DNA of 4,786 nt from a virus (Duplodnaviria > Heunggongvirae > Uroviricota > Caudoviricetes): the IMG/VR virus record IMGVR_UViG_2531839200_000010. One strand, 5' to 3'. The notes beneath the pieces are model-generated. The model did no database searches and was not told the origin of the DNA. It was given only the letters and a program-made list of their open reading frames with translations. Below are positions 1-4,786 of this stretch, piece by piece (the stretch's first letter is position 1; each line of letters starts with the position of its first letter). The position numbers were made by a program, and so were the translations under genes.

Positions 1-167
1 CGCTCATGCTGGCGAACCCAGACACGCAGAGTCTCCGGCGTACAGCCAATCTTTGGGGCAATGGAACAAATTGCCGCCCACTGTGAGTCATATTCATCCT
101 GACTTTCCAGAACCATACGAATCGCCCGCTGACGGACTTCGGGGGAAAAACGAGTATTTTTAGTCAT
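1..167 (-). CDS. IS3-family transposase OrfA (helix-turn-helix DNA-binding subunit), N-terminal 55 codons; 3' end lies outside the window
   Basis: ATG at 167-165 (- strand) is preceded by GAGG (complement of 176-179) at Shine-Dalgarno spacing. Translation is [55 protein letters not shown] with no stops to the window edge. This matches my memory of IS3-family OrfA N-termini (IS629/IS1203 group). It is absent from the supplied ORF track because it is open-ended. Confidence 0.85.
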
Positions 168-196
168 CCTGTTTACCTCTTTCTCAGGGAGTTTAG

Positions 197-221
197 TCTC
201 CAGGATTTCCGGGGCGGTTCA
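197..221 (-). repeat. Putative terminal inverted repeat (left end) of the IS element
   Basis: Position at the junction between the IS and phage sequence; terminal TGAACCGCCCC... on the - strand. The ~25 bp length is assumed from typical IS3-family IRs and was not measured against the other end, which is outside the window. Confidence 0.5.
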
Positions 222-396
222 GATTGAGCAGGAAGTGCTTACCACCTGGCCCGCGGAGGCAATTTCTCATGCTGAAAACGTGGTGTACCGGCTGTCCGGT
301 ATGTATGAGTTTGTGGTGAATGATGCCCCTGAACAGGCAGAGGACGCCGGGCCTGCAGAGCCTGTTTCTGCGGGAAAGTGTTCGACGGTGAGCTGA
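222..396 (+). pseudogene. G: Tail assembly chaperone G, 3' remnant (C-terminal ~57 codons) separated from its 5' part by the IS insertion
   Basis: Frame 1 from 223 reads IEQEVLTTWPAEAISHAENVVYRLSGMYEFVVNDAPEQAEDAGPAEPVSAGKCSTVS then stop TGA at 394-396, matching the C-terminus of lambda gpG as I recall it. No start codon or RBS is present because the ORF runs directly into the IS terminus at 221. Confidence 0.85.
372..378 (+). other. Programmed -1 ribosomal frameshift slippery heptamer G_GGA_AAG of the G/G-T recoding site
   Basis: GGGAAAG lies in the G frame as codons GCG-GGA-AAG, 16 nt upstream of the G stop. The -1 frame stays open from here to 812. This is the known lambda G-T frameshift site (established knowledge). 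Confidence 0.85.
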
Positions 397-812
397 GTTT
401 TGCCCTGAAACTGGCGCGCGAGATGGGGCGACCCGACTGGCGTGCCATGCTTGCCGGGATGTCATCCACGGAGTATGCCGACTGGCACCGCTTTTACAGT
501 ACCCATTATTTTCATGATGTTCTGCTGGATATGCACTTTTCCGGGCTGACGTACACCGTGCTCAGCCTGTTTTTCAGCGATCCGGATATGCATCCGCTGG
601 ATTTCAGTCTGCTGAACCGGCGTGAGGCTGACGAAGAGCCTGAAGATGATGTGCTGATGCAGAAAGCGGCAGGGCTTGCTGGAGGCGTTCGTTTTGGCCC
701 GGACGGGAATGAAGTTATCCCCGCTTCCCCGGATGTGGCGGACATGACGGAGGATGACGTAATGCTGATGACAGTATCAGAAGGGATCGCAGGAGGAGTC
801 CGGTATGGCTGA
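378..812 (+). CDS. T: T segment of the G-T tail assembly chaperone fusion, normally made only by -1 frameshifting out of G and not translated independently
   Basis: The -1 frame relative to G is open from the slip site to TGA at 810-812 (ORF track 378..812; its 'M' is a GTG with no usable RBS). The translation ...ELSFALKLAREMGRPDWRAMLAGMSSTEYADWHRFYSTHYFHDVLLDMHF...SEGIAGGVRYG matches the lambda T region from memory. Its stop overlaps the H start. Confidence 0.8.
   Translation: MFDGELSFALKLAREMGRPDWRAMLAGMSSTEYADWHRFYSTHYFHDVLLDMHFSGLTYTVLSLFFSDPDMHPLDFSLLNRREADEEPEDDVLMQKAAGLAGGVRFGPDGNEVIPASPDVADMTEDDVMLMTVSEGIAGGVRYG
791..797 (+). promoter_or_regulatory. Shine-Dalgarno sequence for H
   Basis: AGGAGGA at 791-797, 7 nt upstream of the H ATG at 805. 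Confidence 0.6.
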
Positions 813-3354
813 ACCGGTAGGCGATCTGGTCGTTGATTTAAGTCTGGATGCGGCCAGATTTGACGAGCAGATGGCCAGAGTCAGGCGTCATTTTTCCGGT
901 ACGGAAAGTGATGCGAAAAAAACAGCGGCAGTCGTTGAACAGTCGATGAGCCGGCAGGCGCTGGCTGCACAGAAAGCGGGAATTTCCGTCGGGCAGTATA
1001 AAGCCGCCATGCGTATGCTGCCTGCGCAGTTCACTGACGTGGCCACGCAGCTTGCAGGTGGGCAAAGTCCGTGGCTGATCCTGCTGCAACAGGGGGGGCA
1101 GGTGAAGGACTCCTTCGGCGGGATGATCCCCATGTTCCGGGGGCTTGCCGGTGCGATCACCCTGCCGATGGTGGGGGCCACCTCGCTGGCGGTGGCGACC
1201 GGTGCGCTGGCGTATGCCTGGTATCAGGGCAACTCAACCCTGTCCGATTTCAACAAAACGCTGGTCCTTTCCGGCAATCAGGCCGGGCTGACGGCAGATC
1301 GTATGCTGGTCCTGTCCAGAGCCGGGCAGGCGGCAGGGCTGACGTTTAACCAGACCAGCGAGTCACTCAGCGCACTGGTTAAGGCGGGGGTAAGCGGTGA
1401 GGCTCAGATTGCGTCCATCAGCCAGAGTGTGGCGCGTTTCTCCTCTGCATCAGGCGTGGAGGTGGACAAGGTCGCTGAAGCCTTCGGGAAGCTGACCACT
1501 GACCCGACGTCGGGGCTGACAGCGATGGCGCGCCAGTTCCATAACGTGACGGCGGAGCAGATTGCGTATGTTGCTCAGTTGCAGCGTTCCGGCGAAGAAG
1601 CCGGGGCATTGCAGGCGGCGAACGAGGCCGCGACGAAAGGGTTTGATGACCAGACCCGCCGCCTGAAAGAGAACATGGGCACGCTGGAAACCTGGGCAGA
1701 CAGGACAGCACGGGCATTCAAATCCATGTGGGATGCGGTGCTGGATATTGGTCGTCCTGATACCGCGCAGGAGATGCTGATTAAGGCAGAGGCCGCGTTT
1801 AAGAAAGCGGACGATATCTGGAATCTGCGCAAGGATGATTATTTTGTTAACGATGAAGCGCGGGCGCGTTACTGGGATGATCGTGAAAAGGCCCGTCTTG
1901 CGCTTGAAGCCGCCCGAAAGAAGGCTGAGCAGCAGAGTCAACAGGACAAAAATGCGCAGCAACAGAGCGATACCGAAGCGTCACGGCTGAAATATACCGA
2001 AGAGGCGCAGAAGGCTTACGAACGCCTGCAGACGCCGCTGGAGAAATATACCGCCCGTCAGGAAGAACTGAATAAGGCACTGAAAGACGGGAAAATCCTG
2101 CAGGCAGATTACAACACGCTGATGGCGGCGGCGAAAAAGGACTATGAAGCGACGCTGAAAAAGCCGAAACAGTCCGGCGTGAAGGTGTCTGCGGGCGATC
2201 GTCAGGAAGACAGTGCTCATGCTGCCCTGCTGACGCTTCAGGCAGAACTCCGGATGCTGGAGAAGCATGCCGGAGCGAATGAGAAAATCAGCCAGCAGCG
2301 CCGGGATTTGTGGAAGGCAGAAAGTCAGTTCGCGGTACTGGAGGAGGCGGCACAACGTCGCCAGCTGTCCGCACAGGAGAAATCCCTGCTGGCGCATAAA
2401 GACGAGACGCTGGAGTACAAACGCCAGCTGGCTGTACTTGGCGACAAGGTCACCTATCAGGAGCACCTGAACGCGCTGGCACAGCAGGCGGATAAATTCG
2501 CACAGCAACAACGGGCAAAACGGGCCGCCATTGATGCAAAAAACCGGGGGCTGACTGACTGGCAGGCAGCGCGGGAAGCCACGGAACAGCGCCTGAAGGA
2601 ACAGTATGGCGATAATCCTCTGGCGCTGAATAACGTCATGTCAGAGCAGAAAAAGACCTGGGCAGCTGAAGACCAGCTTCGCGGGAGCTGGATGGCAGGC
2701 CTCAGGTCAGGCTGGAGTGAGTGGGAAGAGAGCGCCACGGACAGTATGTCGCAGGTTAAAAGTGCTGCCACGCAGACCTTTGATGGTATTGCACAGAATA
2801 TGGCGGCGATGCTGACCGGCAGTGAACAGAACTGGCGCAGCTTCACCCGTTCCGTGCTGTCCATGATGACAGAAATTCTGCTTAAGCAGGCAATGGTGGG
2901 GATTGTCGGAAGTATAGGCAGCGCCATTGGCGGCGGCGCATCAGCGTCAGGCGGTACAGCCATTCAGGCAGCTGCGGCGAAATTCCATTTTGCGGCCGGA
3001 GGGTTTACGGGAACCGGCGGCAAATATGAGCCAGCGGGGATTGTTCACCGTGGTGAATTTGTCTTCACGAAGGAGGCAACCAGCCGGATTGGCGTAGGAA
3101 ATCTTTACCGGCTGATGCGCGGCTATGCCACCGGCGGTTATGTCGGTACACCGGGCAGCATGGCGGACAGCCGGTCGCAGGCGTCCGGGACGTTTGAGCA
3201 GAATAACCATGTGGTGATTAACAACGACGGCACGAACGGTCAGATAGGGCCACAGGCACTGAAGGCGGTTTATGACGTAGCCCGTAAGGCGGCAATGGAT
3301 GTTGTGACCGGGCAGATGCGCGATGGTGGTCTGTTCTCCGGAGGTGGACGATGA
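805..3354 (+). CDS. H: Tail tape measure protein H (tail length determinant), 849 aa
   Basis: Single long ORF with a strong RBS. It begins MAEPVGDLVVDLSLDAARFDEQMARVRRHF, has a hydrophobic segment at about aa 105-140 (GMIPMFRGLAGAITLPMVGATSLAVATGALAYAW), a long charged, Q/K/E/A-rich predicted helical middle, and a Gly-rich C-terminal region (GIVGSIGSAIGGGASASGG...). This matches lambda gpH (~853 aa) from memory. Gene order G-T-H-M-L-K is as in lambda. Confidence 0.95.
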   Translation: MAEPVGDLVVDLSLDAARFDEQMARVRRHFSGTESDAKKTAAVVEQSMSRQALAAQKAGISVGQYKAAMRMLPAQFTDVATQLAGGQSPWLILLQQGGQVKDSFGGMIPMFRGLAGAITLPMVGATSLAVATGALAYAWYQGNSTLSDFNKTLVLSGNQAGLTADRMLVLSRAGQAAGLTFNQTSESLSALVKAGVSGEAQIASISQSVARFSSASGVEVDKVAEAFGKLTTDPTSGLTAMARQFHNVTAEQIAYVAQLQRSGEEAGALQAANEAATKGFDDQTRRLKENMGTLETWADRTARAFKSMWDAVLDIGRPDTAQEMLIKAEAAFKKADDIWNLRKDDYFVNDEARARYWDDREKARLALEAARKKAEQQSQQDKNAQQQSDTEASRLKYTEEAQKAYERLQTPLEKYTARQEELNKALKDGKILQADYNTLMAAAKKDYEATLKKPKQSGVKVSAGDRQEDSAHAALLTLQAELRMLEKHAGANEKISQQRRDLWKAESQFAVLEEAAQRRQLSAQEKSLLAHKDETLEYKRQLAVLGDKVTYQEHLNALAQQADKFAQQQRAKRAAIDAKNRGLTDWQAAREATEQRLKEQYGDNPLALNNVMSEQKKTWAAEDQLRGSWMAGLRSGWSEWEESATDSMSQVKSAATQTFDGIAQNMAAMLTGSEQNWRSFTRSVLSMMTEILLKQAMVGIVGSIGSAIGGGASASGGTAIQAAAAKFHFAAGGFTGTGGKYEPAGIVHRGEFVFTKEATSRIGVGNLYRLMRGYATGGYVGTPGSMADSRSQASGTFEQNNHVVINNDGTNGQIGPQALKAVYDVARKAAMDVVTGQMRDGGLFSGGGR

Positions 3355-3680
3355 AAACCTTCCGCTGGAAAGTGAAACCCGGTATGGATGTGGCTTCGGC
3401 CCCTTCCGTAAGAAAGGTGCGCTTTGGTGATGGCTATTCCCAGCGAGCGCCTGCCGGGCTGAATGCCGACCTGAAAACGTACAGCGTGACGCTTTCTGTT
3501 CCCCGTTGGGAGGCCACGGCGCTTGAGTCGTTTCTGGCTGAGCACGGGGGCTGGAAGGCCTTTCTGTGGACGCCGCCTTATGAGTGGCGGCAGATAAAGG
3601 TGACCTGCGCAAAATGGTCGTCGCGGGTCAGTATGCTGCGTGTTGAGTTCAGCGCAGAGTTTGAACAGGTGGTGAACTGA
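3351..3680 (+). CDS. M: Tail tip assembly protein M, 109 aa
   Basis: ATG at 3351 overlaps the H stop (ATGA), with GGAGGTGG upstream. Translation MKTFRWKVKPGMDVASAPSVRKVRFGDGYSQRAPAGLNADLKTYSVTLSVPRWEA... matches lambda gpM in sequence and length from memory. Confidence 0.93.
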   Translation: MKTFRWKVKPGMDVASAPSVRKVRFGDGYSQRAPAGLNADLKTYSVTLSVPRWEATALESFLAEHGGWKAFLWTPPYEWRQIKVTCAKWSSRVSMLRVEFSAEFEQVVN

Positions 3681-4378
3681 TGCAGGATATCCGGCAGGAA
3701 ACACTGAATGAATGCACCCGTGCGGAGCAGTCGGCCAGCGTGGTGCTCTGGGAAATCGATCTGACAGAGGTCGGTGGAGAACGTTATTTTTTCTGTAATG
3801 AGCAGAACGAAAAAGGTGAGCCGGTCACCTGGCAGGGGCGACAGTATCAGCCGTATCCCATTCAGGGGAGTGGTTTTGAACTGAATGGCAAAGGCACCAG
3901 TACGCGCCCCACGCTGACGGTTTCTAACCTGTACGGTATGGTCACCGGGATGGCGGAAGATCTGCAGAGTCTGGTCGGCGGAACGGTGGTCCGGCGTAAG
4001 GTTTACGCCCGTTTTCTGGATGCGGTGAACTTCGTCAACGGAAACAGTGACGCCGATCCGGAGCAGGAGGTGATCAGCCGCTGGCGCATTGAGCAGTGCA
4101 GCGAACTGAGCGCGGTGAGTGCCTCTTTTGTACTGTCCACGCCGACGGAAACGGACGGCGCTGTTTTTCCGGGACGTATCATGCTGGCCAACACCTGCAC
4201 CTGGACCTATCGCGGCGATGAGTGCGGTTATCACGGTCCGGCGGTCGCGGATGAATATGACCAGCCAACGTCCGATATCACGAAGGATAAATGCAGCAAA
4301 TGCCTGAGCGGTTGTAAGTTCCGCAATAACGTCGGCAACTTTGGCGGCTTCCTTTCCATTAACAAACTTTCGCAGTAA
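3680..4378 (+). CDS. L: Tail tip assembly protein L, 232 aa, with C-terminal Cys cluster (Fe-S binding in lambda gpL)
   Basis: ATG at 3680 overlaps the M stop (TGATG). Translation MQDIRQETLNECTRAEQSASVVLWEIDLTEVGGERYFFCNEQNEKGEPVTWQGRQYQPYPIQGSGFELNGKG... matches lambda gpL from memory. Cysteines fall at aa 173, 182, 205, 208 and 212. Confidence 0.93.
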   Translation: MQDIRQETLNECTRAEQSASVVLWEIDLTEVGGERYFFCNEQNEKGEPVTWQGRQYQPYPIQGSGFELNGKGTSTRPTLTVSNLYGMVTGMAEDLQSLVGGTVVRRKVYARFLDAVNFVNGNSDADPEQEVISRWRIEQCSELSAVSASFVLSTPTETDGAVFPGRIMLANTCTWTYRGDECGYHGPAVADEYDQPTSDITKDKCSKCLSGCKFRNNVGNFGGFLSINKLSQ

Positions 4379-4383
4379 ATCCC

Positions 4384-4786
4384 ATGACACAGACAGAATC
4401 AGCGATTCTGGCGCACGCCCGGCGATGTGCGCCAGCGGAGTCGTGCGGCTTCGTGGTAAGCACGCCGGAGGGGGAAAGATATTTCCCCTGCGTGAATATC
4501 TCCGGTGAGCCGGAGGCGTATTTCCGTATGTCGCCGGAAGACTGGCTGCAGGCAGAAATGCAGGGTGAGATTGTGGCGCTGGTCCACAGCCACCCCGGTG
4601 GTCTGCCCTGGCTGAGTGAGGCCGACCGGCGGCTGCAGGTGCAGAGTGATTTGCCGTGGTGGCTGGTCTGCCGGGGGACGATTCATAAGTTCCGCTGTGT
4701 GCCGCATCTCACCGGGCGGCGCTTTGAGCACGGGGTGACGGACTGTTACACGCTGTTCCGGGATGCTTATCATCTGGCGGGGATTG
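4384..4786 (+). CDS. K: Tail tip assembly protein K, N-terminal 134 codons (JAB/MPN-type metalloprotease-like domain); continues beyond the window end
   Basis: ATG at 4384, 5 nt after the L stop. Translation MTQTESAILAHARRCAPAESCGFVVSTPEGERYFPCVNISGEPEAYFRMSPEDWLQAEMQGEIVALVHSHPGGLPWLSEADRRLQVQSDLPWWLVCRGT... matches lambda gpK from memory. It contains the JAMM-type motif HxH-x7-S-xx-D (HSHPGGLPWLSEAD, nt 4585-4626). No stop before the window end. Confidence 0.9.
   Translation, partial: MTQTESAILAHARRCAPAESCGFVVSTPEGERYFPCVNISGEPEAYFRMSPEDWLQAEMQGEIVALVHSHPGGLPWLSEADRRLQVQSDLPWWLVCRGTIHKFRCVPHLTGRRFEHGVTDCYTLFRDAYHLAGI

Follow-up and report, generated by a model that had tools for sequence, protein, structure and literature searches.

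What does it mean for a prophage when a contig opens in one end of an insertion sequence and runs from its last base straight into the 3' part of a tail gene? The window considered here, that is, the whole stretch of DNA that was analysed (4,786 bp), is the complete contig AOEN01000044.1 from the draft genome (assembly GCA_000335095.2) of Escherichia coli O157:H7 PA48, a strain of clade 9, the group nearest to the O55:H7 progenitor (PMC4928038). An earlier note on this DNA had read it as an IS3-family element lying inside the tail chaperone gene G of a lambda-like prophage. We asked whether the junction is genuine, in which prophage it lies, whether it arose by simple insertion and what the prophage could have lost by it. 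A literature search for the accession of the contig found nothing.

At both ends of the window (1 and 4786) the assembly broke off in a repeat, and neither end is a biological boundary. The left end lies in IS629/IS1203, which occurs at 39 places in the O157:H7 genome PV15-279, and the right end in a stretch of gene K that is present in 8–12 copies per O157:H7 genome, and at 12 places in PV15-279.

An IS629/IS1203 terminus adjoins a 5'-truncated gene G

The first 221 bases of the window (1–221, minus strand) are the left (IRL, transposase-start) end of IS629/IS1203. They are identical at 221/221 positions to full 1,310-bp copies of the element, the remainder of which, with the orfA–orfB programmed frameshift and the second inverted repeat expected of it, is cut off by the contig end. 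Full copies are annotated by RefSeq as 'IS3-like element IS1203 family transposase', IS1203 being the same element as IS629, and such elements are present in 3,655 of 5,426 complete E. coli genomes, O157:H7 and many others. The terminal inverted repeat IRL, of the IS629/IS1203 type (TGAACCGCCCC...), occupies 197–221 on the minus strand (reverse complement TGAACCGCCCCGGAAATCCTGGAGA); it agrees at every base with the IRL of full copies and matches the opposite end of a full copy, TGAACCGCCCCGGGTTTCCTGGAGA, at 22/25 bases. The last nucleotide of the element is base 221, reading ...GGTTCA. Directly inside the IRL lies orfA, encoding the HTH N-terminal domain of the transposase. Its first 55 codons are present (1–167, minus strand, ATG at 167–165; Pfam HTH_Tnp_1, E = 4.7e-7), they coincide with a gene call on the source contig, and the DNA is 100% identical to the RefSeq-annotated IS1203 region. 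The position of the IS terminus at 221, the presence of an IS3-family element beside a 5'-truncated G and the leftward orientation of the transposase, away from the tail genes, had all been proposed in the earlier note and are borne out by these identities.

On the other side of the junction, the plus strand carries codons 84–140 and the stop codon of G (223–396), 100% identical to the G protein WP_000479161.1 of the O157:H7 prophage Sp8. Nucleotide 249 of G (423 nt in full) falls at window base 222, so that the gene is broken at 248/249, after codon 83 of 140. The dinucleotide CA at 220–221 is common to the IS terminus and to G, and alignments to the intact locus begin at 220 for this reason. 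The remaining fragment shares 54/57 residues with positions 84–140 of lambda gpG. In Pfam PF06894 (Phage_TAC_2) it covers only profile positions 84–125 of 126; what is present is the C-terminal third of the domain, lacking a start codon of its own, and not a full-length tail assembly chaperone. Judged from its sequence, the G remnant is a gene fragment and not a functional member of Phage_TAC_2.

Neither gpG nor the G-T product is expected from the interrupted locus

The open frame that leads from the IS into G offers no usable start. The last stop in this frame ends at base 132, and no ATG, GTG or TTG lies in the frame between that stop and GTG235, which has only an AGGA 1 nt upstream, too close to act as a ribosome-binding site. 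The 53-residue ORF that begins there (235–396) has been deposited as ELW03151.1 from E. coli PA48, and its exact sequence is recorded on one contig only. A promoter scan of positions 1–900 found no sigma-70-like promoter on either strand able to drive G'-T-H from the IS end. A literature search for ECs1641, the G gene of Sp8 in strain Sakai, found no paper that mentions it.

Lambda T has no initiation of its own; it is made only as a G-T −1 frameshift product, by ribosomes that have begun in G, and the role of the GGGAAAG heptamer in this frameshift is established for lambda G/G-T. The same heptamer is intact in the window (372–378, plus strand), in the position that it has in lambda G. It lies near the 3' end of G and leads into the overlapping T frame (378–812, plus strand; Pfam Phage_tail_T), whose 144 residues are all identical to those of lambda T. 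At this locus ribosomes do not reach the heptamer. In GenBank and RefSeq, T is listed as a gene in its own right, starting from a GTG (378) that lies within the slippery heptamer; since T is known in lambda only as the G-T frameshift fusion, the 144-aa T 'protein' is an annotation convention rather than a product. With G broken after codon 83, intact gpG cannot be made, and because T is expressed only as a G-T fusion, the frameshift product cannot be made either. The absence of a start codon and ribosome-binding site from the G frame, and the consequent loss of both gpG and gpG-T from this locus, were correctly anticipated in the earlier note.

That note had also described the downstream genes as looking intact, and this holds for the whole of the remaining sequence: no truncation is seen in T, H, M or L, and K stays open up to the contig end. 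The tape measure gene H (805–3354, plus strand; Pfam TMP_2 and Tape_meas_lam_C) encodes 849 aa, 826 of which are shared with lambda H in an alignment containing one 4-residue gap. Lambda H has 853 aa, and the difference is a 4-residue deletion in a glycine-rich stretch, IGSAIGG[AVGG]GAS, at about 2914–2943 of the window. The length equals that of H in Sakai Sp8 (ECs_1643, 2,550 nt), so the shorter H is a trait of the prophage and not damage. The tail tip genes M (3351–3680, plus strand; 109 aa, 103/109 residues identical to lambda M) and L (3680–4378, plus strand; 232 aa, 229/232 identical to lambda L) follow, and then the first 134 codons of K (4384–4786, plus strand; Pfam Prok-JAB), cut by the contig end in the multi-copy region.

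The K reading frame of the window begins 6 nt past L, and its first 104 residues match Prok-JAB. The lambda reference NC_001416 lacks one G that is present at window position 4518 (about position 4868 of record L009), reading GGAGGC-TATTTCC as against GGAGGCGTATTTCC, and the annotated lambda K, of 199 aa, starts at an internal ATG. The 5' end of K in the lambda reference may contain a frameshift or have been annotated wrongly.

The interrupted gene belongs to the cryptic prophage Sp8

Positions 220–4786 aligned to the intact G-T-H-M-L-K block of O157:H7 PV15-279 over 4,567 bases without a single mismatch, and to Sakai Sp8 with 1 mismatch over the same 4,567 bases (99.98% identical); many further O157:H7 genomes match the window at about 100%. 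In these matched genomes gpG is uninterrupted, with 140 codons (WP_000479161.1), and is followed by T, H, M, L and K. The Sakai annotation places G (ECs_1641), T (ECs_1642) and H (ECs_1643) in 'prophage Sp8; lambda-like phage', adjoining icd. Among the O157:H7 genomes listed, the lambda-type G'-T stretch occurs at one place per genome, and this single copy, together with the near-identity to Sakai Sp8, makes the assignment to Sp8 safe. The gene order of the window is that of the cryptic lambda-like Sp8 of Sakai (ECs_1609–ECs_1651, by icd); G is intact in Sakai, whereas it is split in PA48.

In Sakai, Sp8 lacks repressor and anti-repressor genes (no cI/cro) and retains all morphogenesis genes, and it shows no circularisation, replication or packaging (PMC2669165). 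The suggestion that the insertion was 'giving a tail-defective prophage' is therefore misleading, as in Sakai an Sp8 devoid of cI/cro is not excised, replicated or packaged in the first place.

PV15-279 resembles Sakai in the position of its Sp8 beside icd and in having no cI/cro there. Its Sp8 (L005, 11197–13617) lacks the xis-to-Q segment carried by Sakai (L007, 9351–17407), which includes the replication genes O/P, ren, a recombinase and others. In PV15-279 the integrase and excisionase genes are followed directly by gene fragments and then by Q, and only fragments of a DUF4222 gene and ylcG lie between xis and Q. The side tail fibre gene of the same prophage has an internal stop, and its tfa is cut by another IS1203.

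The insertion is young and one of several in the Sp8 tail block

A junction probe (window 120–330) found no place spanning the junction in 5,426 complete E. coli genomes. The exact 38-base junction was likewise absent from genome-contig and metagenome-contig collections, which do not include the PA48 assembly. Given a flank identical to uninterrupted copies and a junction found in 0/5,426 genomes, the insertion is young and confined to one strain or lineage. The earlier note had called it a 'recent insertion rather than long decay'; the identical flanks uphold the first half of that statement, and the second half misleads, Sp8 being already cryptic.

One apparent exception, a 100%-coverage match in MB9-1, consisted of two joined pieces and was rejected; there the IS lies between I and J, not in G (IS1203 in the I-J spacer, L001, 11500–12809). 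Other copies of IS1203 were seen inside the Sp8 tape measure gene H in NZRM3614 (L008, 3292–4568) and, as judged by match geometry, in AC-3, AC-5 and Z1834; in PV15-279 the copy in the tail fibre assembly gene tfa spans 40314–41623 (L005). The two copies in the Sp8 tail block whose ends were read are flanked by the duplications ATA and AAC. Independent IS1203 insertions in the Sp8 tail block are thus not rare across strains.

Insertions of IS629/IS1203 in O157:H7 prophages were already known (Ooka 2009; Rump 2011, PMC3271280), and 62% of the IS629 copies in four O157:H7 genomes sit in prophages or prophage-like elements (PMC3271280). The PA48 case resembles these in the element (a 100% identical end), the prophage, the tail block and the strain-specific disruption. 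It differs from them in its target, codon 83/84 of G, and in a site that is interrupted in none of the 5,426 complete genomes. A further parallel is provided by nu1 of Sakai Sp4, where an IS has likewise knocked out one late gene that is essential to a lambdoid prophage of O157 (PMC2669165), although nu1 is a packaging gene in another prophage and the PA48 target is the tail chaperone of Sp8.

Simple insertion, rearrangement or assembly artefact

A junction seen on one contig of a 2013-era draft assembly, with both contig ends in repeats, could be the product of misassembly, IS629 reads having been joined to Sp8 reads while G is intact in the real genome. The structure of the contig makes this extremely improbable. 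The join falls exactly at the last nucleotide of the IS terminal repeat, where a random misjoin would be a rare chance, and had G been intact, its single-copy sequence would have allowed the assembly to continue on the left into V instead of into an IS. Both halves match known sequences perfectly and meet at the last base of the IS, which excludes a chance join of IS and G. A unique stretch with repeats at both ends is the shape expected of a genuine repeat junction in a short-read assembly.

A draft contig that ends in an IS shows one junction, and 'insertion' and 'insertion plus deletion' are indistinguishable from such a contig alone. We therefore considered what the far side should look like. 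Full IS1203 copies were flanked by 3-bp duplications in the three cases examined (CTT, ATA and AAC), from which a GAT duplication is predicted at the G junction, one copy of it being visible in the window (222–224, plus strand). On simple insertion, ...AAACAGAT should stand directly before the right end of IS629; with the GAT duplication, GAAGCCGTTAAACAGAT should be followed directly by TGAACCGCCCCGGGTTTCCTGGAGAG, where uninterrupted G would read ...AAACAGATTGAGC.... The predicted far junction is then ...GTTAAACAGAT joined to TGAACCGCCCCGGGTTTCC (in shorter form, ...GCCGTTAAACAGAT joined to TGAACCGCCCCGGGTTTCC), encoding G(1–84) followed by EPPRVSWRVFYL and a stop. The exact sequence of this predicted protein, G(1–84) plus EPPRVSWRVFYL, was absent from a collection of 15 billion proteins, as were 16 of 17 far-junction variants (duplications of 0–6 bp; contigs cut 4–36 bases into the IS). 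The single variant present was bare G(1–83), the partial protein EPQ8908402.1 at the end of a 2,114-bp contig of a different E. coli assembly. It ends exactly at residue 83, the codon of the PA48 break. A related isolate may carry the identical IS insertion, or the agreement may be fortuitous; contig ends often bear partial G proteins of a wide range of lengths, so the match is not diagnostic.

The absence of the predicted proteins could also mean that the junction is real but not a simple insertion, the 5' portion of G, and perhaps tail and head genes upstream of it in Sp8, having been lost or moved elsewhere by an IS-adjacent deletion or by recombination with another IS629, during transposition or later. 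Such events have ample opportunity in O157:H7 genomes with dozens of recombinable copies (39 places in PV15-279), and matching target duplications were found at only 21 of 47 IS629 sites in four O157:H7 genomes (PMC3271280). A missing predicted protein is, however, weak evidence, as it depends on gene calling and contig ends. The insertion is moreover young, and young insertions are usually still simple, while all three full copies inspected here had clean 3-bp duplications. We consider rearrangement unlikely on this balance, and the element is probably a full-length simple insertion with a flanking GAT duplication and G codons 1–84 on its far side. From the sequence comparisons it appears likely that, in the PA48 lineage of E. 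coli O157:H7, a copy of IS629/IS1203 transposed into codon 83/84 of G of the cryptic lambda-like Sp8.

Consequences for Sp8 and the O157:H7 prophage pool

In lambda, gpG and gpG-T are both required to chaperone the tape measure protein gpH and to begin assembly of the tail tube. The G/G-T system of the window is close to that of lambda in the residues of both proteins and in its slippery site, as described above, and the phenotype expected of PA48 Sp8 is that of the classical G-defective mutants of lambda, G-null and G-T-null. The two situations differ in that the lambda mutants carry a point mutation in a viable phage, whereas PA48 carries an IS insertion in a non-inducible prophage. The proposed course of events would begin with IS629/IS1203, an IS3-family element of 1,310 bp present in many copies per O157:H7 genome, jumping into codon 83/84 of G. 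The insertion would abolish gpG and the gpG-T frameshift product; gpH would be left without its chaperone, and lambda-type tails would not be assembled from the Sp8 genes. By this analogy with lambda, Sp8-encoded tails presumably cannot be built in PA48. Q-modified polymerase could still transcribe H, M, L and K by passing through the IS in the antisense direction. Complementation in trans by a second, identical copy of G was rejected for the O157:H7 genomes listed, since at megablast sensitivity each of them shows G'-T only once.

Since an Sp8 whose G is intact, as in Sakai, is not mobilised either, the PA48 lesion removes spare parts and does not cripple a live phage. The practical effect would seem to be the loss of only a spare tail-chaperone set from the PA48 prophage pool, if the state of Sp8 in other strains is a guide to that in PA48. 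In the O157:H7 genomes listed, no lambda-type G/G-T was found outside Sp8, which is also one of only three Sakai prophages to be morphogenesis-complete, so the loss in PA48 could matter in trans. That the loss of G measurably lowers the tail parts supplied in trans by the defective prophage pool of PA48 is nevertheless very doubtful; if it were true, the mobilisation of other lambdoid prophages from the clade 9 lineage, including carriers of toxins and effectors, would be altered.

What PA48 shows is an unremarkable IS629 insertion, particular to the strain, in a known and already cryptic prophage. The Sp8 G insertion shows no unusual mechanism and has little significance outside the cataloguing of such sites. 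The list of strain-specific IS629 sites grows by one, and the new site could serve as a typing marker for PA48 or the clade 9 lineage; it is also a further case in which IS629 has worn away the O157:H7 prophage pool piece by piece.
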